The notes under the pieces are model-generated. The model was not told where the DNA came from and did no database searches. It saw nothing but the letters and a program-made list of their open reading frames with translations. Positions 1 through 37,961 of a DNA stretch of 64,000 bases are shown one piece after another (within the stretch, counting starts at the first letter, position 1; every line of letters begins with the position of its first letter). The stretch comes from an uncultured Gammaproteobacteria bacterium. GTDB lineage: Bacteria > Patescibacteriota > Microgenomatia > Levybacterales > UBA12049. Made by a program: the position numbers and the translations under genes. The stretch spans positions 1,505,887-1,569,886 of the forward strand of contig OZ246394.1 in NCBI GenBank assembly GCA_965230895.1, in the 5' to 3' direction.

Positions 1-2
1 GT

Positions 3-2231
3 CAGACAACAAACAGTAGTAAGGTCTTTAGAGGTAATTTCCTTCAAGCACTTTATGGGGATTCATATAACTTAGGGGAGTTAAACGGAAGCACGAATTT
101 TGCATCCTTCTATGGTTCAGGGTCATTAACAACGCTGAGAGGATCATATAGTCAGGCAGGAGTTTCACTTGGAGCGGCTGGTAATGTATCTTACGCACAG
201 GGATCAGTCGGAGATGTGCAGCATTATGGTACAGGAACAATGAGTGAAGCAACAGGTTTAACAGGTATTGTTTCACTTCGAGCAAGTGGTACTGGGAATG
301 ATGGAGAAATTACAACTGCACGTGGTGTCTATGGTTATGTCGAAAATAATCTTTCTGCCAATACTGGAACAATTGTCACCGGTACTGCTATCTATGCTGG
401 TGCACCAACCGCGGCAGCAAATGCTCCAATTACAAATACAAATGGTGTCTATGTCGAGAATCAAGGCAAGACAGGTGTTACAAATGCAACTGGCCTTTAT
501 GTAGCTGCACAAAGTGGAGCAAGCAGTACTAATTATGCAGCTATCTTTGCAGGTGGAAGAATCGGTATGGGTACAACCACTCCATTATCAGGACTTGATG
601 TGCGTGGAAGTGGATTAGCAGCTGGAACTGTTCCAGTTGCTTCTATTTCTGGACAAACATCAAATGCAGCTTTGATCGTCGATAACAATGGCGTTGGAGA
701 CCTTTTCACTGCTTCAAAGAGTGGTGCAACAAAGTTTGCAGTATTAAACAATGGTGATGTTCGAATTGCAAATCTTTCAACAGCAGGTGGTGTTCTTTAC
801 ACAAACGGTACAGGAACAATTGCACAAACGGCACAAGGTGCTTCAGGTCAATGTTTGCAATCTCAAGGTGTTGGTGGAGCTCCAATTTGGGGATCTTGTG
901 ACAGTGCAAGTAGTGTAGACGCGTTTACTGTTGCAAATGGACTTATTTACAACGGAAACCAAACAACTGACTTCGCATTCGGAGGTACATCTTCAGCAAG
1001 TGCAAAATTCAAAGTTAGCATCAGCGGTACACAACCAACTGCATCTGTTGCTGGACAGACTTCAAGTGCTGCAATGATTGTTGACCAAACTGGAGTTGGA
1101 GATCTCTTCACAGCAAGTAAATCAGGGGCAACGAAGTTTACAATTACAAATAGTGGAGTCGTAGGTATCGGACAATTCCCTCGAACAAATCTTTCAACAA
1201 CACCTGCTGGAACACTCCATCTATGGGGATTGGGTTCAAATGGCTCAAATGCAATCCTTAACTTTGGAGATCAAGCGAATTCATCAAATGCATACATTAA
1301 GGAAAATGGTACCGGTGATAGTGATATCCTCGAACTTGGTGGACGACAAGGTCTAATCTTTGCAACTGGTACGAATACTACATATGGATTTGAACGAATG
1401 AGAATTGATGCAAATGGTAACGTAAACATCAATAATACAGGAACAGCCCTTTCTACACTTGATGCACGAGGCAATTCAGGTACAACTTCTGTGGCATCCG
1501 TCTCTGGTCAAACATCAAATGCAGCATTAATCGTCGATAATAACGGAGTAGGTGATGTCTTTACAGCATCGAAATCAGGAAAGACATTCTTCACAGTGAA
1601 GAATAATGGTGTCATCCAAATGGGTAACAATACTGATGGCGTCACATTTGATTACCTCAATGGTGGACCAAACTATGTCGGTCGAGCTCGTCCGACAAAG
1701 CAAATCGTTCTTTCACCTGAATATGCTGGTGGTATCATGACTGCTTCTGGTTCTGCAACAACTGATGGTGATATGACTGCTGATGCATCTGCTTCAGCAT
1801 CAACATTGATTACTCTAAATGGTGTTGCAAACAACTACCTCACATATTACGAATGGTCATCAAGTGAAACTTCATTCCAAGATTACACAGTCGGTGTTCG
1901 AGTCACACTTCCACCAGACTTCTCATCATGGGCGCCTGGTGGATCTTCAATCCAAGTTGTCTACAACACAGAATTGGGAACAAGTACAAGTAATAAGTTG
2001 GATATGATTATCTATCCATCAAGTAGTTCAACACCTACAGTCTATCGCCAAACACAAAATTCAGCATCAAAGACATGGACAACAATTGATGTTCCAGCAA
2101 CTGATTTGAACGATGGTACACCATGGAATGCAGCAAGTCAGTCAGCGATGTTGTACTTCAAGATGTCATCCAAAGATGGTAATCATGTCCAATTGGGTGA
2201 CATTATCTTGAACTATCTGAGCAAGTTCTAA
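3..2231 (+). CDS. 5'-truncated repeat-rich Gly/Thr/Ser-rich surface (adhesin-like) protein. The reading frame stays open to the window edge, so the GTG at 216 is not the true start.
   Basis: The frame containing 216..2231 has no stop codon back to nt 3. A ~30-aa motif SGQTSNAALIVDNNGVGD(L/V)FTASKSG(A/K)T(K)F occurs three times. The composition is G/T/S/N-rich and secreted-like, and the gene sits directly upstream of the giant surface protein. Confidence 0.6.
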   Translation, partial: QTTNSSKVFRGNFLQALYGDSYNLGELNGSTNFASFYGSGSLTTLRGSYSQAGVSLGAAGNVSYAQGSVGDVQHYGTGTMSEATGLTGIVSLRASGTGNDGEITTARGVYGYVENNLSANTGTIVTGTAIYAGAPTAAANAPITNTNGVYVENQGKTGVTNATGLYVAAQSGASSTNYAAIFAGGRIGMGTTTPLSGLDVRGSGLAAGTVPVASISGQTSNAALIVDNNGVGDLFTASKSGATKFAVLNNGDVRIANLSTAGGVLYTNGTGTIAQTAQGASGQCLQSQGVGGAPIWGSCDSASSVDAFTVANGLIYNGNQTTDFAFGGTSSASAKFKVSISGTQPTASVAGQTSSAAMIVDQTGVGDLFTASKSGATKFTITNSGVVGIGQFPRTNLSTTPAGTLHLWGLGSNGSNAILNFGDQANSSNAYIKENGTGDSDILELGGRQGLIFATGTNTTYGFERMRIDANGNVNINNTGTALSTLDARGNSGTTSVASVSGQTSNAALIVDNNGVGDVFTASKSGKTFFTVKNNGVIQMGNNTDGVTFDYLNGGPNYVGRARPTKQIVLSPEYAGGIMTASGSATTDGDMTADASASASTLITLNGVANNYLTYYEWSSSETSFQDYTVGVRVTLPPDFSSWAPGGSSIQVVYNTELGTSTSNKLDMIIYPSSSSTPTVYRQTQNSASKTWTTIDVPATDLNDGTPWNAASQSAMLYFKMSSKDGNHVQLGDIILNYLSKF

Positions 2232-2273
2232 GGAATTGACCAGTATCCATAAGATTGGATACACTTAATTTTT

Positions 2274-5200
2274 ATGTCGAAATTACTAACCACATTTAAA
2301 AAATATATCTTTAATACATTTCGACATGTTCCTACAGTTCATGTTTCAACCAAAAGAAAAACATTGGGACGAAGAATCGTTATTAGTGTATTAGTTTCAT
2401 TGATTGCCTTAGAACATGTACTTGTTCCATTTGCATATGCAGAGCAAAATACTCCAACTCCAAAAGCACAAAAAGAACAATTCAAAACATTAACCACAGA
2501 TACAAATCTCGAAGGCGTTGATCCATATATCGGAGAGGGGCGGGGAGTCAAATCAATAATTCCAGCGATTACAGACTTGAGCGTTTCCAATGATTCTGCA
2601 ACTGTTGCTGTCCCAGCTCGCGTCCATCGACTTGCAAAAGAAGATTACAGACCAAATGAAGAGATAAAAGTTGTTATCGAAAATGGTATCAACAAAAAGT
2701 TTAAGACAGAACTTATCGATGCAGTTGGTCAAAAAGTTGCTCTCGAAACAACAGAAAAAGAGACAGGTGCAGCAAAAGTAATTACTATCAATCAACCAAG
2801 TAGTTTCCGTCCGGGCAAATATACACTTCGAATTTCTGATGGCAAAGGCGGCGTTTCAGAACAAGATTTCAGTTGGGGAGTACTGGCTATCAATCCAGAC
2901 AAATCTATTTACGCGCCACAAGAAAATGCGGATCTTGCAATTGCTGTTTTGGATGAAGGTGGAAATATGGTTTGTGATGCACAAGTCGAATTACAAATCA
3001 CAGACCCAAACAATAAAGTCACATCACTTTCAACTGACAATGGCAAGGTTTTAATTAATCCAGAATGTAAGTCTCATGATTTCACATTGAAACCAGATTA
3101 CGAAACCAATTACCAAGTCGGTGGCATTGGTGAATATCAGATGCATTTGAAAGCGCAGACAAAGAATGGTGCATATGAAATTTCTGATTCTTTTGCAGTA
3201 CAAGCTGCTGCACCGTTTGACGTCAAGAGAGTTACAGCAACTCGCATTTATCCACCAAATACCTATCCGGTGACAATGGAAATTACTGCCAATCAAGATT
3301 TCGAAGGAACAGTGACAGAATCAGTGCCAGCGAGTTTCCGCATCGCCAAACCAGGAAGTCAGGTCCTCACTGAAGCGCAACAAGTTGATAAAGATGTCAA
3401 TGCTTCAGACTCTGGAATCCTTGCACCAGAACCACAATTACCAAACGCTCCCGAAGTTGCCGGAATTCAGACAAGTTCTGTCTTGCCATTTAGTACGGTC
3501 AATAATTTAGCAAATATTAATGGAGGAGAACGAGCTGTCTTCGGCGCAACAATTCCCGGACTTGGAATGCCATTTAATGGACCTTTCCCTGTGACACAGG
3601 AATTTGGTGAGAATCTTGTCCACATGGATGATGCAGGACTTTATGAAACATTTGGTATGCATGGTCATGATGGAATCGACTTTGGAATGCCAATTGGGAC
3701 TACAATCCAATCTGTTGATAATGGAACTGTTGTCCAAGCAGGTCCAGGCGGATATGGTACAACGGTTGTAGTCAAGCACAGTTGGGGATACAGTTACTAT
3801 GGCCATTTGAGTGAAGTGAAAGTAAAAGTCGGTGATCAAGTAATCCGTGGAAGTGCAATTGCTCTTTCTGGAAATTCTGGTATCACCACTGGACCTCATT
3901 TACATTTCAGTATTAAGCCAGATAAAAATGATGAAGATAATGGCTACTACGGTAAAGTAGACCCAGCATATTATCTCGGCATGAAACAATCTGCTGGTGT
4001 TGTCCTCGCGGCTGCGACAAAGGTGCAGCCGGAGAGTTACACGACACCGGTTTCAACAGATATCCAGGTCCTAACATGGAAGATTAATGTCAAAAAAGGT
4101 GACAAGATAAAGATAGGCTACAACTACCTGGCGCCAAGAATCAGTCCACAATTTTATACACTTGGTCCAGCAACATTCACTGATACAAGTGGTAAAGAAG
4201 TCTTCCATGAAATTCGTAAATGGCAAATTGCCGCTGACGCGTTGGATTTGAAGATAAAGCAGGGAAGCTTTACGAAGACAGCATCAACCTGTTCGGGAGA
4301 TTGTTTCCAATCGATTACTGGTCTTGGTTTCAAACCGAAAGCAATTATCTTTTATTGGACTGCCCAAACGTCACAAGGATATGCTGCAAATCAATATACA
4401 GGAATGGGTTTTTCAACGTCTGACAATGATGCTCAGGAAAACAGTGTGGCATTCTGGTCTGAAGATGCTCAGTCAAGTTCAGATACTGGAAGAACTCATG
4501 CAAATGGGTCACCGATATATATCATGACGACAGACGGGAATCCCGTGGCAGCGGCCGATGTTCGAAGTTTTGACGCAGATGGATTTACAATTGGTTGGTG
4601 GATCCAAAACTCAAGCTCATACAATATCCAATACACTGCAATAGGTGGAGCAGATGTCACAAATGCAAAAGTGGGAAGCTTTACATTGACAACGGGTACA
4701 GGATCTCTTGCTATAACAGACCCAGGATTTAAGCCAGATTTCTTGATGACACTTGCAACTGGTACAGAAAACGATGGCGATAATACTGCAAATGCAAAAA
4801 TGAGTGTCGGATATGCTGCAAGTGCAAGTAAACAAAGTGCGACAACGATCTTTGCACGAGATGCTCAATCGACTACAAGTACTAAAAGCCAGCAGCGGAC
4901 TGATTCGAATATCCTTTTGCTTACCGATACTGGTACACAAGATGCTATTGCAAGTCTCACAAGCTTTGATACCAACGGATTTACTCTTAATAAGAGCGAT
5001 GGACCAGCGGCGAATACAACTATCTATTATCTTGCATTACAAGGGGGACAATACGATGTCGGTTCTTTAACGCAACCGACGGCGACCGGTTCTCAATCTG
5101 TTACAACTGGTTTTCGGCCAAGTGGAGTGATGTTCGCGAGTCAAAATGCAACCGCGACGACAAGTATCAATAATACAAGTTCGTTAACCATTGGTGGAGC

Positions 5201-8200
5201 TTCCTCTACATCCCAAAGTCGTGATGCATGGTGCAATGACACAGTCGGTATAACCTGCACAAAAGATTGGAGTACGAGAAAAAAGATTACTATAAATAGT
5301 GCGAGTACTTCTGCATCTCTTTCCAATTTTCCTGTACTTGTAAAGCTTGATTCGAGCCGTATTAACTACAACAAAACACAAAATGCTGGGCAGGATATCC
5401 GCTTTGTATCATCAGCAAATCCAAATGCAGTACTTTCGTATGAAATCGAGAAATGGGATGAATCAGGAATATCTTCAGTATGGGTAAAAGTTCCCAATAT
5501 CAACCCGAGCGCAAGTAATTATATATGGATGTATTATGGGAATTCGAATGCTTCAGATGGACAAGATTCTACGAATGTTTGGGATACTAATTTCCAATCT
5601 GTTTATCATTCAAAAGAGACATCAGGGACAACGCTTGGAGATTCAACTACAAATGCAAGGAATGGAACAAAGGCCACGGCATCCCGTCCAAATCCTACAA
5701 CGGCAGGGCAAATAGGTGGAGCCCAAACATATGTTGCCGCAACAAGTGACTGGGTGGATATCGCAAATACTGCATCGAGCGTTGCGACTGGCAGTCTAAC
5801 GTTCTCTTTATGGTTTAGACCGACAACAACGTTTTCTTCTGCAAAAACAGTTAGTCAAATTTTAGTTAACTTAGGGGAGTCTCCTTCCGGGAACGATGTC
5901 TCGCTTGTATTGGATGAAGGTGGTGGACAGGCATATCTTTCTGTTCTGGATTCAGGCAATAATGTTGTGACAGCTCCGTCGAATCAGACTTCGTGGACTG
6001 CGGGGACATGGTATTATTTGAGTGGAACATTCAGTACGCAAGATGGTCTTAAGTTATATGTGAATGGAGTATTGAATGGTACTGATTCTGGAACTACCCG
6101 AGGCACACCTGCTTCCACAAAGATGAGTATTGGTAGATACTTTGATGGAAGTACTGCGTTTGATGGGATAATTGATGAAGTCCGTATCTCAAATACAGCA
6201 CGCTCGGCAGATTGGACAAATACAGAATATCTTACTGCAATTGATGCAACAAATACCTATGGTATCGAAGAAGCACAAAATCAAGGTGCAAATATCGTTA
6301 ATCAGGGGACTATCTGGTCAGACGATCGCAATGGCCAAGCATCAAATCGAAACGCGAATATGTCCACCACTACTGCTGCTGCAATTCGTATCGCAACCAG
6401 TGCAAGTAATGGTTCGACTCCATCAAGCGCAAATGCTGAAGCAGAATTACAGTCATTTGATACCTCAGGATATACACTTAATTGGACAACAGCAGATGCT
6501 ACGGCACGTGAAGTTGTCTACTGGGCCGCAGGAAGTATTTCTGCTTCTCAGGAAGATTATCGTTGGTTCAAAAATGCAAATGCTCTAACTCCAGGAGAGG
6601 CACTTGAAGACGAAAACACCACAACGATCGTTGCAAAGAGCAAAGCCACTGCAAGACTTCGCGCAAGTATGTCTGCTGGAGGAAATGGGTTAAGTGCCTC
6701 ATCACCTGGATTCAAGCTCCAATATGCTGCAGCTGGTGCAGAATCTGGTGTGACTCCATCAAATGATTGGTGCAATGATACAACAGGAGTGACTTGTGTG
6801 GCACCAGGACCAACTTCTCAGCAGGTCGTGACGCAAACCGATTGGTGCAATGATGCATCAGGTATAACGTGTGATACCAACTGGCAATATCGGCGTAAGA
6901 TAACGATTAATAATTCTGCCTCAGGTCAGACATTGACTGATTTTCCTTTATTGGTGAAATTGGATAGTACAAGAATTGATTACTCAAAGACACAAAGTGA
7001 TGGTGATGATCTCAGGTTCGTTGCAGATGGAGCCCCAACCGTTGTACTGCCACATGAAATTGATGGTACGTGGAGCAATAGTGGTACTAATTATGTCTGG
7101 GTGAAGGTAACACTAGCGGCAGGATCAACTACAGGAGCTATTTATATGTACTACGGAAATAATAGTGCTACCAGTGGGCAAGATAAAAATAATGTTTGGA
7201 ATTCAGCTTATCAGTCCGTTTGGCATCTTGGAGAGACTGGAGACAATGTAGGTAATGATTATATAGACAGTACAAGTACGGCAAATAATGCTCAGGGAGG
7301 TGGAGGTCAATCTGGGCGAGTTCCTGCTCCGTCTTCGGCTGGTCAGATTGGAGCTGCACAAGACTTCGATGGAACTGATGATGTCTTGACTACTTCCCAA
7401 GCTGGTACTTATAACTTTTCTAATGCATTTACGATCGATTTATGGATAAATGCTGACGACTGTGGAGATAGTGGAGGAGCGGGGACTATTTTCGAGAACT
7501 GGGCGGATGCTGGAGAATTCTATGTATGTTCGACAAATTCGAGAGCGTTAGGGTTCTGGGTTAATAGTCCTGGAGATGATACCTATACTGTCGGAAACGT
7601 ATTTAGCTTTAACACCTGGGCGCACGTTGCTGTTACTCATAATGGATCAGGAACATATAGCTACTACGTAAACGGTGTTTTGCAAACTAACTCGGATGGA
7701 ACAGGTTCAGTGAATAACGCGAGTAGTCCTTCGACAAAAGTTGGAATAATCGGTGCAGATGAAGCATCACTCTCTTCTAATTATAACTTTGATGGAGAAA
7801 TGGATGACCTCCGTGTGTCCAGTTCAGTACGCACTGCTGATTGGCTTGAAGCGGAATATCTGACAGGAACCGATGCAATGAATTCATTTGGTTCAGAGCA
7901 AACATATCAGACGACAACTTCTTCAAATGGGGGATGGGATATGCGAAGAAAGATAACGTTTGATAATTCAAGTGCAGCAGGAAACCTTCCTAACTTCCCG
8001 GTTTTAGTCAAACTCGATAATACACGAATCGACTACAGCAAGACACAAAATAGTGGTCAAGACATTCGTTTTGTTGATCCATCTGATCCTACGACAGTAC
8101 TTCCTCATGAAATTGAAACCTGGAATGAAAGTGGTACATCCTACGTGTGGGTGAAAGTCCCTCAGATTGATGCAGGATCAACGAGTGATTATATCTGGAT

Positions 8201-10403
8201 GTATTACGACAACCCGACAGTTTCGGACGGACAAGATGCGACAAATGTATGGGAAAGTGATTTCAAAGGAGTTTGGCATTTATCGGAATCAGGTAATGGA
8301 ACCTCAAATGAATTCGATGAAAGTACATCAAGTGCTGATAACGGAACTGGAGGAGGAGGAACAGGTACCAAAGTCCCTACACGAACCGCTGGGCAAATTG
8401 GTTCAGGGCAAAAATTTGATGGTGTCGATGATTATATTATTACAAATAGTACAAGTTTGATTAATGGTACAACTGCATATACGTATGAAGCTTGGATAAA
8501 TCCTACATCTTGTGGAGAAGGGGGAAGTGGTACTGTTTTGGGTAAAGATAATGTTTCAAACCTTTTCCTATGTCAAACCGTTGCCAATAACATTGCACTA
8601 GCTTATGAAGCAAATGGTTCTAGTGCGTATTCCGCCATTAATTCATTAACGATGAATAAGTGGCATCATGTTGTCGCTGTTTATAATGACGCGAACGTGG
8701 CATCTTTTTACATTGACGGAGTTCTTGTTACAGCAACAGATTCTTCTGTCACAGAAGCAAATACTACTGGAGGGATTGTCATCGGTACAGAATCAAGTGG
8801 TGGCACAACTCCGGCGACTTCAAATTACAATTTTGATGGTGTTATCGACGAAGCTCGTATTTCAACTGGTGTTCGTTCCGCAGATTGGATTAAGGCAGAA
8901 TATCTCACAGGATCAGATCAGATGAATGCATACAGTGAAGAGCAAGCATATACAAACGCTGGATCTGTAACCACAGGTTGGACTGATGTTGCAGATATCT
9001 GGTGCAATGATAATACAGGTGTAACGTGCAATACCAATTGGACAACGAGAAAGAGAATCACAATTAATAATCAAGCTTCAAGTACAAACCTTACCAGTTT
9101 CCCGGTGCTTGTTAAATTAGATTCAACAAGAATTGACTACAGTAAGACTCAAAATAGTGGACAAGATCTGCGATTTGTTGATCCGGCTGATCCAAATACT
9201 GTGTTGCCACATGAAATAGAACGTTGGGATGAATCCGGTACATCATATGTTTGGGTACAAGTTCCGCAATTAGACGCAAAGTCTGCAACAGATTCTATCT
9301 GGATGTATTATGGCAATGCAGCTATTAGTGATGGACAGGCTGCATCAAGTGTATGGGATGGGAACTATAAAGGAGTATGGCATTTAAATCAGGATCCAGC
9401 TGTAGCAGGATCAGGAGGAATACTAGATTCTACAACAAATGCAAATAATGGTACTGACACTGGATCTATGGACGCGAATGATTTAGTCCCTGGAACGATT
9501 GATGGTAGTCTTGATTTTGATGGATCAAATGATTATATCCAAGTTAATAATCCTGCTTCTTTAAGAATTACAGGTGCGCTCACGATTTCTACTTGGGTCA
9601 AGGTTGATAATAATACTCAAGGGGCAGTTATTTCAAAAAGTGATTTAACTCCAACTGCTTTGGCGTATAGTTTGGAGATTCTTAGTGGTAAAGCTGTCTT
9701 ATATGTTTCTTCAAATGGATCGTCGTATGTATCAGCAACAAGTACTTCTACGTTAGCTACTGGTATTTGGTATCACATTACGGCAGTCTACAATCCAAGT
9801 ACATCATTAACTATGTATATTAATGGAATCCAAGAAGCGCAAAATACTACCAGCATACCTGCTTCTCTTTTTAATAGTGCTCAGAATGTTAATATTGGTG
9901 CCCAGCAAAGCAATGCAACGAACCCACTTGACGGTATTATAGATGAGTCGAGAATATCAAATACTAATCGTTCTGCTGATTGGGTTAAAGCAGAATATTT
10001 GACGACTTCTGATCAATTAAATACTTTTGGTAACGAAGAAACGCAAAGTTCAGCTGTATGGAGATTTAAAGATAATACATCTGTCTCAGATGGAACAACA
10101 ATTACATCTGCTGTCTTGGGTACATCAACTTCTGGAAATCAAATGACATATCAAGAGTCCAATCCAACCTTTCTTATTCCGACTGCTTTGGGTGTAGGAG
10201 AGAAGAGAGAATTTGATTTCTCACTGGATGGTTCGAGGGCAAGTAACCGAAGGACGTATTATTTCAGGTTGGTTAATGCTGATGGGACACCAATGACGAA
10301 TTATACAAAGTATCCTTCAATTACTGTAGGTGTTCCAAATGACAAACTAATGCGTGGCGGAAAATGGTTTAATTACAAGAAAGAACAGAATGTCAGCTTC
10401 TAG
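2274..10403 (+). CDS. Giant (2709 aa) cell-surface protein. It has an N-terminal signal/anchor, Ig-like region, M23 (LytM) metallopeptidase domain, then four [DUF2341-like + LamG-like jelly-roll] modules.
   Basis: Hydrophobic N-terminal segment IVISVLVSLIALEHVLVPFAYA. M23 motifs HGHDGIDFGMP...YGHLSEV...GNSGITTGPHLHF at about nt 3560-3930. Four repeats of KITINNxAS...FPVLVKLDxTRIDYSKTQNSGQDIRFVD...WDESGTSYVWVKVP...YIWMYYGN...DGQD..VW (DUF2341-like). Each is followed by ...LWFRP/LWINA...DExRIS..xRSADW (Laminin_G_3-like). Confidence 0.8.
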   Translation: MSKLLTTFKKYIFNTFRHVPTVHVSTKRKTLGRRIVISVLVSLIALEHVLVPFAYAEQNTPTPKAQKEQFKTLTTDTNLEGVDPYIGEGRGVKSIIPAITDLSVSNDSATVAVPARVHRLAKEDYRPNEEIKVVIENGINKKFKTELIDAVGQKVALETTEKETGAAKVITINQPSSFRPGKYTLRISDGKGGVSEQDFSWGVLAINPDKSIYAPQENADLAIAVLDEGGNMVCDAQVELQITDPNNKVTSLSTDNGKVLINPECKSHDFTLKPDYETNYQVGGIGEYQMHLKAQTKNGAYEISDSFAVQAAAPFDVKRVTATRIYPPNTYPVTMEITANQDFEGTVTESVPASFRIAKPGSQVLTEAQQVDKDVNASDSGILAPEPQLPNAPEVAGIQTSSVLPFSTVNNLANINGGERAVFGATIPGLGMPFNGPFPVTQEFGENLVHMDDAGLYETFGMHGHDGIDFGMPIGTTIQSVDNGTVVQAGPGGYGTTVVVKHSWGYSYYGHLSEVKVKVGDQVIRGSAIALSGNSGITTGPHLHFSIKPDKNDEDNGYYGKVDPAYYLGMKQSAGVVLAAATKVQPESYTTPVSTDIQVLTWKINVKKGDKIKIGYNYLAPRISPQFYTLGPATFTDTSGKEVFHEIRKWQIAADALDLKIKQGSFTKTASTCSGDCFQSITGLGFKPKAIIFYWTAQTSQGYAANQYTGMGFSTSDNDAQENSVAFWSEDAQSSSDTGRTHANGSPIYIMTTDGNPVAAADVRSFDADGFTIGWWIQNSSSYNIQYTAIGGADVTNAKVGSFTLTTGTGSLAITDPGFKPDFLMTLATGTENDGDNTANAKMSVGYAASASKQSATTIFARDAQSTTSTKSQQRTDSNILLLTDTGTQDAIASLTSFDTNGFTLNKSDGPAANTTIYYLALQGGQYDVGSLTQPTATGSQSVTTGFRPSGVMFASQNATATTSINNTSSLTIGGASSTSQSRDAWCNDTVGITCTKDWSTRKKITINSASTSASLSNFPVLVKLDSSRINYNKTQNAGQDIRFVSSANPNAVLSYEIEKWDESGISSVWVKVPNINPSASNYIWMYYGNSNASDGQDSTNVWDTNFQSVYHSKETSGTTLGDSTTNARNGTKATASRPNPTTAGQIGGAQTYVAATSDWVDIANTASSVATGSLTFSLWFRPTTTFSSAKTVSQILVNLGESPSGNDVSLVLDEGGGQAYLSVLDSGNNVVTAPSNQTSWTAGTWYYLSGTFSTQDGLKLYVNGVLNGTDSGTTRGTPASTKMSIGRYFDGSTAFDGIIDEVRISNTARSADWTNTEYLTAIDATNTYGIEEAQNQGANIVNQGTIWSDDRNGQASNRNANMSTTTAAAIRIATSASNGSTPSSANAEAELQSFDTSGYTLNWTTADATAREVVYWAAGSISASQEDYRWFKNANALTPGEALEDENTTTIVAKSKATARLRASMSAGGNGLSASSPGFKLQYAAAGAESGVTPSNDWCNDTTGVTCVAPGPTSQQVVTQTDWCNDASGITCDTNWQYRRKITINNSASGQTLTDFPLLVKLDSTRIDYSKTQSDGDDLRFVADGAPTVVLPHEIDGTWSNSGTNYVWVKVTLAAGSTTGAIYMYYGNNSATSGQDKNNVWNSAYQSVWHLGETGDNVGNDYIDSTSTANNAQGGGGQSGRVPAPSSAGQIGAAQDFDGTDDVLTTSQAGTYNFSNAFTIDLWINADDCGDSGGAGTIFENWADAGEFYVCSTNSRALGFWVNSPGDDTYTVGNVFSFNTWAHVAVTHNGSGTYSYYVNGVLQTNSDGTGSVNNASSPSTKVGIIGADEASLSSNYNFDGEMDDLRVSSSVRTADWLEAEYLTGTDAMNSFGSEQTYQTTTSSNGGWDMRRKITFDNSSAAGNLPNFPVLVKLDNTRIDYSKTQNSGQDIRFVDPSDPTTVLPHEIETWNESGTSYVWVKVPQIDAGSTSDYIWMYYDNPTVSDGQDATNVWESDFKGVWHLSESGNGTSNEFDESTSSADNGTGGGGTGTKVPTRTAGQIGSGQKFDGVDDYIITNSTSLINGTTAYTYEAWINPTSCGEGGSGTVLGKDNVSNLFLCQTVANNIALAYEANGSSAYSAINSLTMNKWHHVVAVYNDANVASFYIDGVLVTATDSSVTEANTTGGIVIGTESSGGTTPATSNYNFDGVIDEARISTGVRSADWIKAEYLTGSDQMNAYSEEQAYTNAGSVTTGWTDVADIWCNDNTGVTCNTNWTTRKRITINNQASSTNLTSFPVLVKLDSTRIDYSKTQNSGQDLRFVDPADPNTVLPHEIERWDESGTSYVWVQVPQLDAKSATDSIWMYYGNAAISDGQAASSVWDGNYKGVWHLNQDPAVAGSGGILDSTTNANNGTDTGSMDANDLVPGTIDGSLDFDGSNDYIQVNNPASLRITGALTISTWVKVDNNTQGAVISKSDLTPTALAYSLEILSGKAVLYVSSNGSSYVSATSTSTLATGIWYHITAVYNPSTSLTMYINGIQEAQNTTSIPASLFNSAQNVNIGAQQSNATNPLDGIIDESRISNTNRSADWVKAEYLTTSDQLNTFGNEETQSSAVWRFKDNTSVSDGTTITSAVLGTSTSGNQMTYQESNPTFLIPTALGVGEKREFDFSLDGSRASNRRTYYFRLVNADGTPMTNYTKYPSITVGVPNDKLMRGGKWFNYKKEQNVSF
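5229..10000. repeat. Four tandem ~1-kb diverged direct repeats (DUF2341-like + LamG-like modules) inside the giant gene. Approximate units: 5229-6240, 6769-7870, 7930-8900, 8998-10000.
   Basis: Recurrent stretches such as gtcaaactcgataatacacgaatcgactacagcaagacacaaaatagtggtcaagacattcgttttgttgatcc and gttaaattagattcaacaagaattgactacagtaagactcaaaatagtggacaagatctgcgatttgttgatcc. Confidence 0.7.
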
Positions 10404-10416
10404 TACATGACGGATC

Positions 10417-10971
10417 ATGTATACTAAAGACATGCCTGAAGCCTCATTTAATCCAGAATCACTTGCATACGTTGAGGGGCCGAAAAAGAAACGTTTTCGG
10501 TTGCCGCTACCAAGTAAAAAATCAATAGTCATTCTCTCTATTTTTGTTGTCGGTATTGCAATCGGTGCAGGCGGAATATTTGGTTATCTCCATTTTAAAA
10601 AAACTCCTGCACCCGTTGCAGAACAACTTCCAGATAATCAGCCACCGCAAGCAGTACTTGGTTTGATTGAAACGGTTGAGAAAAAAATTCCTAACATTCC
10701 CAAAAATGAGATCCCTTCAGTAGCAACGATAAAAGATTTATCTGAGTTATCCGATCAAGAATTTCTTGAAGGGGCAAAAGTTGGAGATAGACTCATGATT
10801 TACTCAGCAGCGAAACTCGCTATCCTATACCGTCCAAGTACCAATGAAGTTATCCGGCAAGGCCCAGTTGAAATTATCGGTGAAGCAAGTGGAGAAGACA
10901 CAGCTTCTTCCTCGTCAGCTGTCCTTTCCGCGTCAGATTCCGCAGTACCTGCTCTACGAATCAAATACTAA
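10417..10971 (+). CDS. Hypothetical single-pass membrane-anchored protein
   Basis: ORF with one TM helix (SIVILSIFVVGIAIGAGGIFGYL) and a Ser-rich C-terminus. No recognisable domain. Confidence 0.45.
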   Translation: MYTKDMPEASFNPESLAYVEGPKKKRFRLPLPSKKSIVILSIFVVGIAIGAGGIFGYLHFKKTPAPVAEQLPDNQPPQAVLGLIETVEKKIPNIPKNEIPSVATIKDLSELSDQEFLEGAKVGDRLMIYSAAKLAILYRPSTNEVIRQGPVEIIGEASGEDTASSSSAVLSASDSAVPALRIKY

Positions 10972-10996
10972 GGAAAGGAGTATAATACAACCAATT

Positions 10997-11069
10997 GCCG
11001 TCGTAGCTCAATGGATAGAGCAGTCCCGTCCTAAGGGAAAGGTTGGAGGTTCGATTCCTCTCGACGGTA
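10997..11069 (+). tRNA. tRNA-Arg (anticodon CCU)
   Basis: Manual cloverleaf fold of GCCGTCGTAGCTCAATGGATAGAGCAGTCCCGTCCTAAGGGAAAGGTTGGAGGTTCGATTCCTCTCGACGGTA. 7-bp acceptor stem with one G-U pair. D-stem GCTC/GAGC with a GG-containing D-loop. Anticodon loop GU-CCU-AA with U33. 5-nt variable loop. T-arm GGAGG/CCTCT (one G-U pair) with loop TTCGATT. Discriminator A. One G27-A43 mismatch in the anticodon stem. Confidence 0.8.
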
Positions 11070-11238
11070 CAAAATATAATCTTGGATCACTTCTCTGGTA
11101 TCTCTGTAAGCCCTTGAACGCTTCTTTAAGATATGTAGACTATCAAAAATGGGTGATTAGTTAGCTCAGCAATTTGTCAGGTTTGTCATCCATTTCAGTG
11201 CCATTTATTGTATATTGCAGAAAAGGAGGTGATGACTT

Positions 11239-11535
11239 ATGGCAAGAGTAGAGCAAAGTAGCAGTCGGGCAGCACAAATTGCGGCTGGATTCGCGCTTGA
11301 TCATGAACTTCAACTTGGTACTGTTGCTGCTGATCGGGCAGCGCTTAACCGCCGACTTTTTGATGAAGCAGCAAAAGGTCTCGAAAATACACTTGTGGAG
11401 ATAGAAGTGGCAACAAGAACCACAATGGTTGCAGAACTTGGAGTCAGAACAACAAGAGAAATTGTTCGTGAAGAGATATTCCCAACAGCATCTATTAAAG
11501 GAAGATCGCGTGAAGCATTAAAAGGAATGCGTTAA
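11239..11535 (+). CDS. Hypothetical 98-aa protein with an unusually strong Shine-Dalgarno
   Basis: ORF preceded by aaaaGGAGGTGAtgacttATG, an 11-nt match to the anti-SD complement. Ala/Arg/Glu-rich, helical, no TM. Lies directly downstream of tRNA-Arg. Confidence 0.5.
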   Translation: MARVEQSSSRAAQIAAGFALDHELQLGTVAADRAALNRRLFDEAAKGLENTLVEIEVATRTTMVAELGVRTTREIVREEIFPTASIKGRSREALKGMR

Positions 11536-11546
11536 AGACAGAAAAA

Positions 11547-12311
11547 TTGGCTTTCATGTATAATCCAACCATGAAACGGCAGGAAGCAATTCGATTTATC
11601 GCACTCAGAAGTTTGGGTAATTTTTTAGTGCTATTTAGTCTCTATGGAGTTGGGGCAACTTTTGGCCCGGCAATCACAGAGCAAATAAAGTATGCAATCA
11701 TCCAAACCCGTGGTATTGAATTTACCGTGCAGGCAAATACTCCTCGTTCGAATTCAGATGCTTCTTCATCTTCTCAAATTTCCACTCCACAAGATCCACA
11801 AGATACGATTGGACGGGATTTAGGTTTTTCAGATATCCTTGCAGGACAACAGCAGCAAATCTTGACACCAAAAGATCCACAATTTAGTATTTTGATACCA
11901 AAAATAGGTGCGTCCTCAAAAGTCTACCCGAATGTCGATCCTGAAAACAAGGATGAATTCCTTCCAGTGCTTCAGCATGGAGTCGCGCATGCGAAAGGGA
12001 GTGTTTTCCCCGGTTACCCAGGTAATACCTATCTCTTTGCTCATTCTGCAGATAACTGGTGGGATGTAGGCCGCTACAATGCGGTATTTTATACACTCAA
12101 TAATCTTTCTGAAAACGATGAGATTGTCGTATTCTTTGAGAATAGGAGATATGATTATGTGGTGAAGCAAAAGCTCGTGGCTGATCCCAATGATGTAACA
12201 TACTTAACGAACAAGCATGAGGGGCAACATAAACTCGTTCTGCAGACATGTTGGCCGCCAGGAACCACATGGAAGCGGCTCTATATTGTGGCTGATCCGA
12301 AGTCTATTTAA
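11547..12311 (+). CDS. Sortase-family transpeptidase
   Basis: N-terminal TM anchor. Conserved His region (QHGVAHAKGS...LFAHS) and a TLQTC active-site motif (TLxTC) near the C-terminus. Confidence 0.7.
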   Translation: MAFMYNPTMKRQEAIRFIALRSLGNFLVLFSLYGVGATFGPAITEQIKYAIIQTRGIEFTVQANTPRSNSDASSSSQISTPQDPQDTIGRDLGFSDILAGQQQQILTPKDPQFSILIPKIGASSKVYPNVDPENKDEFLPVLQHGVAHAKGSVFPGYPGNTYLFAHSADNWWDVGRYNAVFYTLNNLSENDEIVVFFENRRYDYVVKQKLVADPNDVTYLTNKHEGQHKLVLQTCWPPGTTWKRLYIVADPKSI

Positions 12312-25803: not shown

Positions 25804-27537
25804 TTAATTCGGCTTAATTTTGTATTCCACTACTGGTACCGCAGTACATTGTCCGCCCATGTCATTAATTGCTGGTATACATTTGCCTGATTTACATGTC
25901 TGTGGACGTGTTGTCTCGCATGGAGCCCCTTCCTCACCAGAAATTGGTGCTGGGTTATTTCCGCATACGCCTGATGATCTCTCCGCTGGTGAGCAATCAT
26001 TTGGATTTATTGGATTTGCCGGAGGTGCTTGGTAACGTGGTGGAACGATAACTGGGTTTGTCGGATTTGTTGGACGAAGACTACCAGGTGCACCTTTTTT
26101 GACACATTTACCATTTACTAAATCGCTATCTTGGGCGCAGCAAACTTTCGCTGTACTTTTAACCGGACAATTAGCTCTTGTAACTGGAACCTGGGTATAG
26201 TTATATCCACATGCAGGGGTGGTTGTGCAGCAGCCGTTTATGACCGGTTTGCCCACATCGCAGCAGACAGTTGGCGTGTTAACAGCTGCGCGCTTTGATG
26301 CGCAAGCAGGTTTGAGCACTGTTACAGGTTTTTGTGGACCTGGTTTCAATGTTGTTCCAGGTTTTACTATTGTTTTAGGTTTGATTGCTCCCGGCTTAAT
26401 GACCGATGGAACCTGGATTCTCGGCAAGACAGGAGCGGGTGGCGGAGGTGCTGGACTGCATGTTTCTCCTGTAATCCCGCCACCGCTTGAAATTGTTCCA
26501 GGTGGGCAAATGCTCGTAACTGTAGTATCATTTGTCTCTTGAGTTATGGCTATACCTGCAACGGCTTGGGGACTATTATCTATCTTTGTCCCTGCGTCCG
26601 CCAGATATACTGATTTTTCTGGGAATACTTGTTTGCCACTTGAATCAACCCATATCTTTATGACAGGGCAGATTTTTGATCCGATGGATCGCTTACAAAA
26701 GTCTTTGCAGGCATCACTATCAGGGTGGACTTTGCAAAGCTCTTCAAGGACATCTTGCTCTTTTTGATCAAGGACTATATTTTCATCGCACTGCTGATTT
26801 TCTCGCGGTTCTCCAAGTACCGGCCCAGAACATAGTCCGCCTTTGAAAAGCTCGCAATACTGACGACTGGTGCAGAGCGGATTCTTCGAGTCTTTACTAC
26901 AGATTGATTGGATATTACTTTTGTCTTTAGCGGTCAGTGGTTTCACCCGAAGTGCTGTGCAAGTAGAATTTATTCGGACATTTGTTGCTTCAGTAATCGG
27001 GAGGTGTTGACCATCAGTATCTGTGATACCTGCCCCCACCACCCATCCTTCGCTGGGGCTATCAGAAGTAAAGAGATATCTTGACTCTTTACTCGTCAGT
27101 GTTTCTCCGGGAGCAAGCATCTTCGTACCTTCTAAAGGCTCAAATTCTGCGATATAGAATTGCTTCAGTGATCCTGCAGCGATACCATAATTTGCTATGG
27201 TAATTGGTTGATCTCCAACATTTTTATAAGTAAATGAGCCTGAAAGCGTATCATTGTAGTACACATTTTGGCCGACAAACTTTTGTCCATTTACTTTTAA
27301 GAGGGTTCCGCCTTCTTGTCCCATACGAGTGCCACAAAGCGTAGGGTCTGCTTCTCCAGTATGAAGACAACCAAAGAGTGGAGGAGCATTAAAACCCTCG
27401 GCAAATTGCATGATGCGTTGTGGCTGAAGAAGTGCAAAGACAGTCAATGCTAGAATTGGCAGCATAATAAACATGAAGAATAGATTCTTTTTGTTATTTT
27501 GCTTTGTTTGAAGTCGTCTTTTTCTTAGTTTTGGCAT
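25804..27537 (-). CDS. Secreted Cys-rich / Pro-rich exoprotein (cassette copy 1)
   Basis: Basic N-terminus plus TM/signal (LFFMFIMLPILALTVFALLQPQ). The conserved ~300-aa N-domain is shared at about 85% identity with 28113..29957. C-terminal half rich in Cys, Pro and Thr. Confidence 0.6.
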   Translation of the reverse strand: MPKLRKRRLQTKQNNKKNLFFMFIMLPILALTVFALLQPQRIMQFAEGFNAPPLFGCLHTGEADPTLCGTRMGQEGGTLLKVNGQKFVGQNVYYNDTLSGSFTYKNVGDQPITIANYGIAAGSLKQFYIAEFEPLEGTKMLAPGETLTSKESRYLFTSDSPSEGWVVGAGITDTDGQHLPITEATNVRINSTCTALRVKPLTAKDKSNIQSICSKDSKNPLCTSRQYCELFKGGLCSGPVLGEPRENQQCDENIVLDQKEQDVLEELCKVHPDSDACKDFCKRSIGSKICPVIKIWVDSSGKQVFPEKSVYLADAGTKIDNSPQAVAGIAITQETNDTTVTSICPPGTISSGGGITGETCSPAPPPPAPVLPRIQVPSVIKPGAIKPKTIVKPGTTLKPGPQKPVTVLKPACASKRAAVNTPTVCCDVGKPVINGCCTTTPACGYNYTQVPVTRANCPVKSTAKVCCAQDSDLVNGKCVKKGAPGSLRPTNPTNPVIVPPRYQAPPANPINPNDCSPAERSSGVCGNNPAPISGEEGAPCETTRPQTCKSGKCIPAINDMGGQCTAVPVVEYKIKPN

Positions 27538-27540
27538 ATA

Positions 27541-28092
27541 TTAATACGTTCTTGGTGTCAAAAAATTGTTTATGGTGTGAATAACACCATTCTTGCTTTT
27601 AATATCATAATTCTCAAGGTACGAGTAATCATTAAGTATCCAATATTCTCCTTTTTTTGTAAATTTTATTTTTTCTCCTTGGACAGTTGTCAGTTCCATC
27701 CCATCTTTTAGATCTGCAAATAGATATTGTCCTTTGACGACATGATATAGCAATGTTTGCCTGAGATCGCCTTCTTGTTCTGGTAATTGTATTGATGCTA
27801 AAAATCCAGGAGAAAGTTTTGCATATGCTTCATCGGTTGGGACAAATACTGTATACGGTCCTTTATCATGGAGAAAAGTGTCATAGCCGACTGATGTTAT
27901 GAGCATTCCAAATTTGCTGGTTGTAGATGAATACTGGATATTGTCTGCTATATCCATTGAAGGTTTCATCTGGATCTCCTCATACTCAATAAAGTTTGGA
28001 TCGGAGGATATCCAGATAAACAGGCTTGGAATAAGTATCAACAAAATGATACCGAGAATATAGAGATATTTTTTACGCAGTTTGAGTGTCAT
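27541..28092 (-). CDS. Fasciclin (FAS1) domain protein, N-terminally anchored
   Basis: YTVFVPTDEAYAKL...LLYHVVKGQYLFADLKDGMELTTVQGEKIKF...NGVIHTINNFLTP matches the FAS1 consensus. Stop is 3 nt upstream of the Cys-rich gene start. Confidence 0.7.
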   Translation of the reverse strand: MTLKLRKKYLYILGIILLILIPSLFIWISSDPNFIEYEEIQMKPSMDIADNIQYSSTTSKFGMLITSVGYDTFLHDKGPYTVFVPTDEAYAKLSPGFLASIQLPEQEGDLRQTLLYHVVKGQYLFADLKDGMELTTVQGEKIKFTKKGEYWILNDYSYLENYDIKSKNGVIHTINNFLTPRTY

Positions 28093-28112
28093 AGCTTAAT
28101 ACATAAAACATA

Positions 28113-29957
28113 CTATCTACAAGCCATCTCTTTCTCGTCATATGTCGTCTGACAGCCTTTATCACGAATACATTGTTGGAATAAGTCTCCGCTTCTGCCA
28201 ACTCGACAGAAGTTATAGCAAGCTTGACTCTCTATAACGACAGGCTCCATACATGCGCCATAAGTTGCCTTATAACCCTTTTGCTTCGCTAAGCAATCAA
28301 AATCACTCTTCTTGGTTAAATCCCCAATGCTACATGTTGGATCTGCTGGAGCAGGGTTTGCCGGTGCTGGGTTTGCCGGAGCAGGATTATTGCCACATAC
28401 ACCTGCTGATCTTTCTGCTGGCGTACAGTCATTTGGATTTGGTGGTGTATCAGCTGGCGCTTTATAGTTTGGCGGATAAATCTTATTTGTGTCTCGAGGA
28501 ATCTGAGATTCTCCAGGCAATGGTTGTTTGCCTGCTGGAACCTGACTCGGTTGGCAATAACCGAACTTCTCTACAGTATCTTTTGCACAACAAACACCTG
28601 ATTTACTCTTGTATTGGCAGTTTGCTCTTGTTGCAGGCGCTGATTTATAGACAAAGCATCCTGGTTGGCAGCAACCATTAATAAGAGGGAAGTCACTTGC
28701 ACAGCATTGGCCACTTTCATTTGCTCTGTGAGATGGGCATGATGGCTTGTAACCGATTGAGCTTCTCGGATCAACTCCTGGCGCTGCTGGCTTTGGTGGG
28801 AATGGGTTTGTCTTTGGTTTTGCAGGTGATGGTGCTTTGCATAATCCACTCGGAGGATTGACGGAAAGATCGACATATCCACTACAACATCCCGCAGTAT
28901 TATCTCCACTTTGCCCATTTGGAATACATGCTTCGGCCTTCACGCCGGCATCGTTATCTGGTGCTCCGTTGGCGGCGGCAATAACCTTTGCGCCAGCAAC
29001 TGCGGGTTCATTGGTACTTGCCATATACTTTGCAGGCTGTGGGAAGACTTGTTTGCCATTTGGATCAAACCACAACATCTCAGCTGGACAGATTTTAGAA
29101 CCAATGGCACGTTTACAGAAATCTTTGCATGCATCACTGTCTGGGTATGGTTTACAAAGTTGCTCTAAAATATCCTGTTCTTTCTGATCCAAAACTATAT
29201 ATTCATCACATTGTTGATTTTCTCGTGCCTCACCAAGAACTGGACCTGAACATTGTCCGCCTTTAAATATTTCGCAGTACTGACGACTTGTACAAAGAAT
29301 GTTTTTCGGATCCTTACTGCAAAGTGCTTGGATGTTGCTCTTGTCTTTTACAGTAAGTGTCTTTACGCGAAGCGCTGTACAAGCAGAACTAACACGGACG
29401 TTTGTAGATTGCGTGATTGGAAGTGGTTGGCCATCAGTATTTGTAATGCCCGGACCGACAACCCATCCATCACTTGGATCACCAGATTTAAATGTATATG
29501 ATGATTCTTTACTTGTAAGTATCTCTCCAGGAGCGAGTGTCTTAGCTCCTTCTAAAGGCTGAAACTCTGCAATATAAAATTGCTTCAGCGATCCTGCGGC
29601 TATGCCATAATTTGCGATATTGATCGGTAGGTCACCAACGTTTTTATAGGTAAATGATCCGGAGAGCGTATCATTATAATAAATATTTTGTCCGACAAAT
29701 TTTTGTCCATTCACTTTTAATAAGCTTGCGCCTTCTTGTCCTAATCGTGTACCACACAGTGATGGGTCAGCTTCTCCTGTATGGAGACATCCAAAGAGTG
29801 GGGGAGCATTAAATCCTTCTGCAAATTGCATAACGCGCTGTGGTTGGAGTAGCGTAAAGATTGTTAGTGCCAAGATTGGTAACATAACAAAAAAGAAAAG
29901 CAAATTTCTTTTTTTATTCTTTGTTTGTCTTATGCTTCTTTTTCTTGTTTTTGCCAT
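28113..29957 (-). CDS. Secreted Cys-rich / Pro-rich exoprotein (cassette copy 2)
   Basis: Paralogue of 25804..27537. N-domain nearly collinear. C-terminus with PANPAPANPAPADP repeats and Cys clusters. Confidence 0.6.
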   Translation of the reverse strand: MAKTRKRSIRQTKNKKRNLLFFFVMLPILALTIFTLLQPQRVMQFAEGFNAPPLFGCLHTGEADPSLCGTRLGQEGASLLKVNGQKFVGQNIYYNDTLSGSFTYKNVGDLPINIANYGIAAGSLKQFYIAEFQPLEGAKTLAPGEILTSKESSYTFKSGDPSDGWVVGPGITNTDGQPLPITQSTNVRVSSACTALRVKTLTVKDKSNIQALCSKDPKNILCTSRQYCEIFKGGQCSGPVLGEARENQQCDEYIVLDQKEQDILEQLCKPYPDSDACKDFCKRAIGSKICPAEMLWFDPNGKQVFPQPAKYMASTNEPAVAGAKVIAAANGAPDNDAGVKAEACIPNGQSGDNTAGCCSGYVDLSVNPPSGLCKAPSPAKPKTNPFPPKPAAPGVDPRSSIGYKPSCPSHRANESGQCCASDFPLINGCCQPGCFVYKSAPATRANCQYKSKSGVCCAKDTVEKFGYCQPSQVPAGKQPLPGESQIPRDTNKIYPPNYKAPADTPPNPNDCTPAERSAGVCGNNPAPANPAPANPAPADPTCSIGDLTKKSDFDCLAKQKGYKATYGACMEPVVIESQACYNFCRVGRSGDLFQQCIRDKGCQTTYDEKEMACR

Positions 29958-29959
29958 AG

Positions 29960-30517: not shown

Positions 30518-30571
30518 AACTTTATCTTATCTTAAGAAAAATAGAGAAGTCAACGCACGGTATATTCTCTA

Positions 30572-31144: not shown

Positions 31145-31149
31145 ATTAT

Positions 31150-32217: not shown

Positions 32218-32260
32218 CTATAATCACCTCCTTTTCGGTAGGGACTAGTACTTAGAAATC

Positions 32261-32809: not shown

Positions 32810-32958
32810 AGTAATAATAAAAAAGACACTCACGAGGAGTGCCGAAAATACGAAGTATCTAATTTGGCTCCTCGGTTGGACTTATCTTTGTGCCAACTGT
32901 CTTTGGAATATCTAGCATTATAGCAATCTTGATGGGGAATGTAAAGTGTCGTTCAGAC

Positions 32959-35151: not shown

Positions 35152-35217
35152 AGGTCAAGTATATCTAGTTTATAAAAAAAGGAATGGATAATACAAGTAC
35201 AAGTTATAAAGTAACCG

Positions 35218-37955: not shown

Positions 37956-37961
37956 AAAAGA

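Follow-up and report, generated by a model that had tools for sequence, protein, structure and literature searches.

Here we describe a protein of 2709 residues encoded in a 64,000-nucleotide stretch of contig OZ246394.1 (assembly GCA_965230895.1, positions 1,505,887 to 1,569,886 of the forward strand; henceforth the window). Its domains do not follow one another like "beads on a string"; instead, three nested insertions are set into a conserved, beta-rich scaffold. The scaffold consists of a signal sequence, three MG/Ig-like (macroglobulin- or immunoglobulin-like) beta-sandwiches, a DUF7483-like pseudo-trimeric domain, a C-terminal beta domain (CTD) and an 18-aa tail. Its loops carry the cargo: an M23 peptidase on two flexible tethers, one module composed of a DUF2341 and a LamG domain (M1), and a block of three further modules of this kind (M2, M3 and M4). 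Hidden Markov models built for the analysis return the order MGa-[M23]-MGb-D7483a-[M1]-D7483b-CTDa-[M2 M3 M4]-CTDb-tail for the window protein and for two of its relatives (P0002 and P0003). Coordinates of all features are given in Table 1.

The gene is a single, unbroken open reading frame (ORF) of 2709 codons. This had been claimed in an initial annotation made from the sequence, and is borne out by the ORF list and the translation; an identical protein is recorded on an NCBI contig of 1,610,123 bp. Domains were called by a Pfam-A search with curated thresholds, a search that had been set beforehand as the test by which the M23, DUF2341 and LamG assignments of the annotation might be refuted. 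All three came out far above the Pfam cutoffs: Peptidase_M23 (PF01551) scores 88.3 bits over aa 464-551 (cutoff 28.7; E 3.9e-25), DUF2341 (PF10102) scores 154.4 bits in four stretches (cutoff 23.4; E 1.1e-45) and Laminin_G_3 (PF13385) 255.7 bits (cutoff 27.6; E 2e-76), also in four stretches, the best of which covers positions 1-150 of the 151 in the profile. Taken singly, the M23, DUF2341 and Laminin_G_3 parts are ordinary members of their families. The annotation had further listed an anchor and Ig-like regions. A hydrophobic segment ending AYA↓EQ is indeed present at the N-terminus, at which the putative signal would be cleaved, and three beta-sandwiches are modelled before M23; the N-termini of relatives are equivalent.

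Evidence for the first insertion comes from the 100 best relatives, which were mapped by BLAST, and from an alignment of 38 sequences (alignment A1). In many relatives that have no M23 the segments corresponding to aa ~100-360 and ~598-657 adjoin, and the span of the scaffold is bimodal: ~255-350 aa in proteins without M23 and ~500-650 aa in those with it. In alignment A1 the M23 region (aa 360-597) replaces a loop of 10-20 aa found in relatives without M23; the cysteine pair C234/C265 is invariant. An AlphaFold2 (AF2) model of aa 90-665, with a mean predicted local distance difference test score (pLDDT) of 80, comprises three beta-sandwiches with M23 as a separate globule. The linkers to either side of the globule, ~75 and ~25 aa long, are disordered in the model (pLDDT <50), which thus places M23 on flexible linkers in a loop of the third beta-sandwich. 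Across the family M23 and scaffold are joined in two ways: M23 is either inserted, as here, or N-terminal (P0031, P0035 and P0039).

When compared with known structures using Foldseek, the sandwiches match the MG arrays of complement C3 and alpha2-macroglobulin (E about 1e-9). Membership of the alpha2-macroglobulin family was nonetheless rejected: the MG2 model (PF01835) scores only 26.9 bits where 32.8 are required and there is no CxEQ motif among the 20 cysteines of the protein. Nothing among the PHROGs matched the MG-like scaffold or the CTD.

In LytM and lysostaphin zinc is held by the HxxxD motif and the second histidine of HxH, and two further histidines are catalytic. The equivalent set is complete in the window protein (H465-x3-D469, H511 within YYGHLS, and H542-L-H544); these residues align identically with those of zoocin A, StM23 and ShyA, and of the 20 members with M23 in the family alignment, 19 keep the motifs. 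Sequence matches in the PDB are to zoocin A, StM23, ShyA and LytM (best E 1e-18 to 6e-19), and Foldseek superimposes the globule on lysostaphin (4qpb; target-normalized TM-score (TMt) 0.79, root-mean-square deviation (rmsd) 2.5 Å, 138 columns) and on StM23 (9gy1; TMt 0.78). Judged by motifs and model, M23 looks catalytically competent. The proposal in the annotation that it could cut peptidoglycan stands as a predicted activity.

The second insertion divides a domain built of three repeats. Internal repeats of ~130 aa are found in aa 662-982, and a fragment on the far side of M1 (aa ~1388-1420) resembles the ends of repeats 1 and 2. A search with aa 662-985 returned 301 homologs, mostly stand-alone proteins of ~410 aa without a Pfam domain. 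Because aa 1345-1432 align to the last 70-85 residues of the stand-alone homologs (51% identity and E 4e-19 for P0111), and because the host domain is unbroken in P0004, P0005 and P0007, all of which have no M1, it follows that M1 splits the third repeat. A structure model of the three-repeat domain built with M1 deleted (pLDDT 94.9; predicted TM-score (pTM) 0.94) puts the junction in a loop that joins strand 315-322 to strand 329-336.

Foldseek found no analogue of the three-repeat domain in the PDB (all matches prob <0.12). Among viral structures (BFVD) the best match comes from an uncultured Caudovirales phage: a DUF7483 protein, with an E of 1.4e-9 and prob 1.0, but with a query-normalized TM-score (TMq) of 0.40 and an rmsd of 9 Å. 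DUF7483 (PF24299) is an uncharacterized domain of tailed phages, on which no papers were found in the literature searched. With the E limit relaxed to 1, its Pfam model still gives no hit to aa 662-985; one stand-alone homolog (P0113) comes just short of the cutoff of 27 bits (26.9 bits, E 3.4e-6). The three-repeat domain looks like a family related to, yet separate from, DUF7483.

The stand-alone proteins themselves (P0101-P0220; also L004 10001-11326 and L006 9220-10593), which have three repeats and account for most of the 301 matches, constitute a large unannotated family. One lies in a phage-like locus together with an integrase, an M23 protein of 450 aa and a LamG protein of 826 aa. Another is found in a Dehalococcoidia contig behind Peptidase_M73-like and S26-like genes, a neighborhood of the TasA/SipW type.

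At the third site the two halves of the CTD adjoin, with ~10-17 residues between them, in P0016, P0017, P0037, P0057, P0009 and P0069; it follows that a loop of the CTD has received the 1093 residues (two knots, M2, M3 and M4) that separate the halves in the window protein. The cargo at this site varies among relatives: there are no modules in P0016 and P0017, one in P0005, P0007, P0008 and P0020, two in P0004, and three in the window protein, P0002 and P0003. P0006 has three modules and no CTD. A comparison of repeat number across strains had been suggested as a check on the annotation; among the relatives compared here the number ranges from 0 to 3 at the CTD site.

The modules had been described as a single tandem array of four old duplications, 65-75% identical at the nucleotide level and each with one WCND knot. 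This picture requires revision in three respects. M1 (aa 983-1343) lies ~195 aa ahead of M2 and within another domain. Module-by-module alignment gives whole-module identities of 36-46% for protein and 47-55% for DNA: the DUF2341 part is the more similar (54-68% DNA, 50-68% protein), the LamG part the less so (42-52% DNA), and only patches of 70-300 nt attain 60-74%. Tandem Repeats Finder, run on positions 1-12000, found no module array and only three trivial repeats of 9-13 nt, from which we conclude that the modules are too diverged for tandem detection at the DNA level. The WCNDxxG(I/V)TC knots begin at aa 986, 1499, 1524 and 2243, so that M1 and M4 have one each, M2 has two ahead of it and M3 has none.

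The two-cysteine knot is lineage-specific. It was seen only in P0001-P0004 and P0007, where it marks the point of entry of the inserted modules; other DUF2341 proteins have W..xW.yRK at this position, without the cysteines. The NCBIfam model of TafC (NF052521) matches the LamG parts only (E 5.6e-27), and at 94.8 bits against an equivalog cutoff of 410 membership of TafC was rejected.

Table 1. Features of the giant-protein gene and its immediate neighbors (window coordinates).
Feature	Position (nt)	Strand	Basis or remark
Partner gene, 3' part; repeat-rich fibrous protein ending ..VQLGDIILNYLSKF	1..2231	+	open from window edge, no stop from nt 3 to 2231
Giant-protein gene, stop codon included	2274..10403	+	ORF list, translation; 2709 aa
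Signal peptide or signal anchor, aa 1-57	2274..2444	+	long basic n-region, hydrophobic RRIVISVLVSLIALEHVLVPFAYA, then AYA↓EQ; read from sequence
MG/Ig-like scaffold, part 1, aa 91-359	2544..3350	+	sandwiches 1, 2 and first half of 3; AF2 pLDDT 80-98
Insertion 1, aa 360-597; linkers and M23 core (aa 434-574, nt 3573-3995)	3351..4064	+	alignment A1, Pfam, PDB hits, Foldseek
MG/Ig-like scaffold, part 2, aa 598-660; ..ISPQFYTLGP..RKWQIAADA	4065..4253	+	alignment A1; model strands 508-565 finish sandwich 3
DUF7483-like domain, part 1, aa 661-982; repeats 1, 2 and first half of 3	4254..5219	+	internal repeats, 301 homologs, model
Insertion 2, module M1, aa 983-1343; WCNDTVGITC knot, DUF2341, LamG jelly-roll	5220..6302	+	Pfam, module alignment
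DUF7483-like domain, part 2, aa 1344-1420; second half of repeat 3, ..LQSFDTSGYTLNWTTADATAREVVYWAAG	6303..6533	+	aligns to C-terminal ends of homologs
CTD, first half, aa 1421-1498; YRWFKN..FKLQYA	6534..6767	+	unbroken CTDs in relatives
Insertion 3, aa 1499-2591; two knots, M2 (1536-1883), M3 (1884-2231), M4 (2232-2591), each DUF2341 and LamG	6768..10046	+	Pfam, knots, alignment
CTD, second half, aa 2592-2691; WRFKDN..EFDFSL..YYFRLV..YPSITV	10047..10346	+	alignment with uninterrupted CTDs; 91% identity to ortholog
C-terminal tail, last 18 aa; LMRGGKWFNYKKEQNVSF-COOH	10347..10400	+	local form of ..PTLxQLMRHGKWFxxxGVxQPFTF-COOH
WCNDxxG(I/V)TC knots	5229-5258, 6768-6797, 6843-6872, 9000-9029	+	sequence motif
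Single-pass membrane protein, 184 aa	10417..10971	+	14 nt past giant gene; possibly part of the unit

A codon alignment with the ortholog from locus L001 (CAZDOJ010000002.1; 62% identity overall) shows that the parts of the protein diverge at very different rates. The MG-like region, M23 and its linkers, the DUF2341 domains of M2-M4, the knots, the second half of the CTD and the tail retain 80-93% protein identity, with nonsynonymous divergence (dN) of 0.04-0.14. By comparison, the four LamG jelly-rolls retain 30-54% (dN 0.42-0.90) and the DUF7483-like domain 40-54% (dN 0.39-0.56); indeed, the LamG domains are as dissimilar from those of the ortholog as paralogous modules are from each other. 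Synonymous divergence (dS) is saturated at about 1-3.8 and dN/dS ranges from 0.02 to 0.47; the value for M23, about 0.05, indicates strong purifying constraint. That replacement in the LamG and DUF7483-like domains is 5-10 times faster than in the scaffold is a robust observation, and a mosaic of fast and slow parts is the pattern expected of ligand-recognition surfaces mounted on a conserved chassis.

Diversification of LamG by a diversity-generating retroelement was considered and rejected: the scan found no near-identical repeat pair involving the gene that could serve as template and variable copies (~100 nt, differing mainly at adenines), and no reverse transcriptase was present among the ORFs scanned. 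A scan of genome contigs returned the L001 ortholog together with two unrelated M23 genes, and nothing else.

How widespread is the scaffold? A search of 1.84 billion cluster representatives with the MG-like region (aa 90-359) yields 1960 matches at E up to 1e-3, of which 1031 pass at E up to 1e-30; each representative stands for a cluster at 50% identity. The region is nearly always near the N-terminus, in proteins of 350-6500 aa. Among the 128 best new representatives the inserted-M23 design occurs in 86, which amounts to at least 86 clusters; DUF2341-LamG modules occur in 17, only one of which has, like the window protein, four. The window protein is thus an unusually elaborate member of its family. 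The C-terminal cargo changes from member to member: there may be none, there may be one to four modules, and elsewhere there are Kelch, beta-helix, FG-GAP or Gly-rich segments.

Those relatives that carry a taxonomic name all belong to Patescibacteria (Roizman-, Curtiss-, Nealson- and Saccharibacteria, Parcubacteria) or to Woesearchaeota, which makes a member of the Patescibacteria, or Candidate Phyla Radiation (CPR), the probable producer. The scaffold occurs without M23 in the proteins named Woesearchaeota. DPANN archaea are as a rule without peptidoglycan. The presence of the scaffold in these proteins therefore argues for a role in cell-cell contact rather than in the housekeeping of a wall.

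The last residues of the protein are also a family trait. The tail is present in 35 of the 100 relatives (including P0005-P0043), where it stands behind unrelated domains. It closes 68 of the 86 representatives with an inserted M23 and 5 of 32 without M23, an association that is uncorrected for shared ancestry. It is matched by none of the models in NCBIfam or Pfam, and the back-translated MRHGKWF pattern gave two hits in 2.9 million viral contigs, both probably due to chance. The tail may be an anchor, a sorting signal or a latency peptide for M23.

A second conserved C-terminal domain (..PGDIVADHT..SGSPISNEQFTITYKV..Y.TTIIYTITPQY-COOH) closes many of the giant relatives, mostly ones without M23. 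Its carriers include P0031, P0035, P0039-P0040, P0051, P0057 and P0061. The same domain closes two proteins of ~360-375 aa beside the gene pair of locus L009 (754-1881 and 2891-3973, both on the reverse strand).

The gene immediately upstream, 43 nt from the giant gene, had been taken to encode a truncated repeat protein. Its reading frame continues without a stop as far as the window's first base, and the gene is accordingly cut only by the window edge. In L001 (12-3110), L008 (1-3198) and L009/L010 (L009 4938-9995) a homolog of this partner gene immediately precedes the M23 gene. The partner is thus kept in four loci, and all copies end ..VQ(L/I)GDIxL(N/S)YL(S/A)(K/A)F; the M23 proteins of the other loci are ~40-62% identical to that of the window in best local alignments. 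The L009 partner is full-length (1685 aa, signal peptide included) and matches two tail-fibre families of the PHROGs (E 1e-20 and 2e-11). The partial copy in the window matches nothing in Pfam, NCBIfam or the PHROGs.

On the other side of the giant gene, the 184-aa membrane protein is conserved at the same position in L001 (187 aa, 11261-11824) and has no match in Pfam or NCBIfam. Further downstream are a tRNA-Arg gene (600 nt from the giant gene), a sortase gene (11547-12311) and genes for a PEGA protein, MreB and wall glycosyltransferases. A scan for promoters and terminators gave results at or below chance level, leaving the gaps of 43 and 14 nt as the evidence for an operon. Anchoring of the giant protein by sortase was rejected: it contains no LPXTG-like motif followed by a hydrophobic stretch and a basic tail. 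Nor, despite the sortase gene, is there a canonical sortase substrate among all ORFs of the window.

What might such a protein do? We tentatively favor, with confidence a little short of even, the reading that it is a secreted, surface-displayed adhesin-lysin for cell-cell (episymbiotic) contact. The LamG, DUF2341 and DUF7483-like surfaces would bind variable glycans or proteins on the surface of a second cell, which an episymbiont would use as host or prey, while the long scaffold and the tail-fibre-like partner would hold the giant protein away from the producing cell. Binding would bring the tethered M23 to the cross-bridges of the target peptidoglycan, where a local cut would open the wall at the site of contact; the C-terminal tail would retain or sort the protein on the envelope of the producer. 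A role in adhesion or cell attachment had been put forward in the initial annotation. That suggestion fits the hypervariable LamG and DUF7483-like domains, the varying number of modules, the conserved partner gene and the scaffold in DPANN-named proteins. Giant surface proteins and secreted wall hydrolases have already been proposed to serve host attachment in CPR bacteria (PMC8080830; PMC11809585).

Several considerations weigh against the adhesin-lysin reading. The presumed CPR affiliation is drawn from named relatives only, and a contig of 1.6 Mb is large for this group; moreover, locus L001, with its 62%-identical ortholog and syntenic neighbors, is titled 'uncultured Gammaproteobacteria bacterium', possibly a taxonomic mislabel. 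Surface exposure and signal cleavage of the giant protein are putative. We know of no ligand for DUF2341, for DUF7483 or for the LamG subgroup found in the window. Since dS is saturated, the rapid change of LamG cannot be called positive selection, and relaxed constraint or the shuffling of modules would give the same pattern. Finally, the nearby genes for sortase, MreB and wall glycosyltransferases, like LytR_C near the L009 homolog, fit an enzyme of the producer's own wall equally well.

This last point leads to the alternative of a housekeeping autolysin, in which M23 would cleave the producer's peptidoglycan during growth or the separation of daughter cells, and LamG, DUF2341 and the tail would bind polysaccharide of the same wall. 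M23 proteins are classic hydrolases of division and elongation, and the domain matches the NCBIfam models of MepM, ShyA, DipM and Pgp3, all far below cutoff; the strong constraint on M23 and the company that the tail keeps with it also agree with such a role. Against it stand the hypervariable modules, whose number shifts among close relatives in a manner unexpected of proteins that bind a conserved polymer of their own, and the scaffold in archaeal-named proteins. The size of the protein, its tail-fibre-like partner and its phage-type DUF7483-like domain are foreign to known division hydrolases, and Pfam finds in it no LysM, SH3b, coiled-coil or SPOR domain. We regard an autolysin as unlikely, albeit deserving of real weight. 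A bacteriolysin comparable to lysostaphin or zoocin A, secreted and released to kill competitors that its LamG and DUF7483-like parts recognize, appears quite improbable. The catalytic domain is the same as in lysostaphin, zoocin A and LytM (MEROPS M23B; HxxxD, middle His, HxH), its best sequence matches are to these enzymes, and the logic of a catalytic domain joined to a variable targeting domain, here hypervariable, is common to both. Yet in the giant protein M23 is nested, on disordered linkers, in a beta-sandwich of a 2709-aa scaffold, and the whole exceeds known bacteriolysins 10-20 times in size; it lacks a recognition domain of the SH3b or zoocin type, no N-terminal occluding segment of the LytM type was identified and no fem-like immunity gene was seen in the window. 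The conserved tail and fibrous partner gene, for their part, favor a cell-bound structure.

A further question is whether the genes encode the tail fibre and tail lysin of a (pro)phage or other mobile element, or a domesticated device resembling a tailocin. The tail-fibre matches of the L009 partner, the matches of M23 to endolysin and tape-measure PHROGs, the Caudovirales counterpart of the DUF7483-like fold, the phage-like locus of one stand-alone homolog and the tRNA-Arg gene downstream are all consistent with such an origin. We nevertheless consider it very unlikely: the 64 kb contain no capsid, portal, terminase, tape-measure or integrase gene, the giant protein carries a signal for secretion at its N-terminus, the pair of genes recurs in differing chromosomal contexts, the tail motif is essentially absent from viral contigs and the window's own partner has no PHROG match. 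Returning to the adhesin-lysin, a bolder form of that reading, improbable and offered as speculation, is that the gene pair would constitute a dedicated organelle with which ultra-small episymbionts make contact with a cell and breach its wall, put together from components of phage-tail type (a fibre, a DUF7483-like domain for receptor binding, an M23 tail-lysin and LamG). The LMRHGKWF..QPFTF-COOH peptide would then be a new lineage-specific signal for envelope sorting or anchoring, or a latency peptide for M23, and cargo would be swapped in the scaffold loops, retargeting the structure to new hosts.

Comparison with described systems places the giant protein near several of them. Giant secreted proteins of the DUF2341, LamG or FhaB type, with a proposed function in host recognition and attachment, are reported from the ultra-small episymbiotic lineages of Patescibacterium danicum (PMC11809585) and Vampirococcus lugosii (PMC8080830). 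They resemble the window protein in their very large size, secretion and DUF2341/LamG-type binding domains; however, no fused M23, MG-like N-terminal scaffold, nested insertions or C-terminal tail are described for them in these two papers, and Vampirococcus has its wall hydrolases as proteins of their own. DUF2341 and/or LamG are likewise found on surface proteins associated with filaments, among them adhesins of type IV pili (PilY-type tip adhesins and DUF2341 proteins of archaea; PMC4858521) and TafC of haloarchaeal Tat-fimbriae (PMC11821415); in contrast to these adhesins, the giant protein has no pilin-like N-terminus and there are no pilus genes in the window. With alpha2-macroglobulin and complement C3 it has in common a string of MG-type sandwiches, reflected in the weak MG2 hit, but global TM is only about 0.15, and no thioester CxEQ, bait region or TED domain was found.

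An M23 domain within an MG-like sandwich, the two further DUF2341-LamG nestings, the tail and the conserved partner gene were not found in the literature searched, which is not proof that they are undescribed. To our knowledge, the means by which ultra-small episymbionts recognize a host and pass its wall are largely unknown, only type IV pili having experimental support. The family couples a conserved, apparently active M23 to fast-evolving domains of lectin and phage-receptor-binding type on a single scaffold, and as such is a concrete, testable candidate for the opening of a host wall at the contact site. It also provides a natural example of repeated domain insertion in the loops of a beta-scaffold, with three nestings and a copy number of 0 to 3 at one site. 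If the protein were an autolysin, its interest would be mainly architectural. The MG-like N-terminal scaffold, the DUF7483-like domain of 410 aa and the C-terminal peptide merit models of their own, the first two being unannotated families.

Elsewhere in the window a ribosomal-protein block on the reverse strand (31825-39963) is split: rplL and rplJ (31825-32833) lie apart from the L1 gene (37962-38801), and between them are a polysaccharide-lyase gene of 730 aa, a beta-helix/NosD-like gene of 726 aa and an ORF of 176 aa. The lyase and NosD-like genes have stretches of ~185 nt in common, with 80-85% identity. A duplicated cassette (25804-31752, reverse strand) comprises a Pfam-less protein of 577 or 614 aa and a fasciclin protein of ~185 aa, with DNA repeats of 71-74% identity; a third fasciclin gene is found at 31150-31752. 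Lastly, two adjacent copies of a 107-nt sequence (57970-58193; 84% identity) are situated within the gene for a 987-aa subtilase (Peptidase_S8) at 57864-60827 on the reverse strand.

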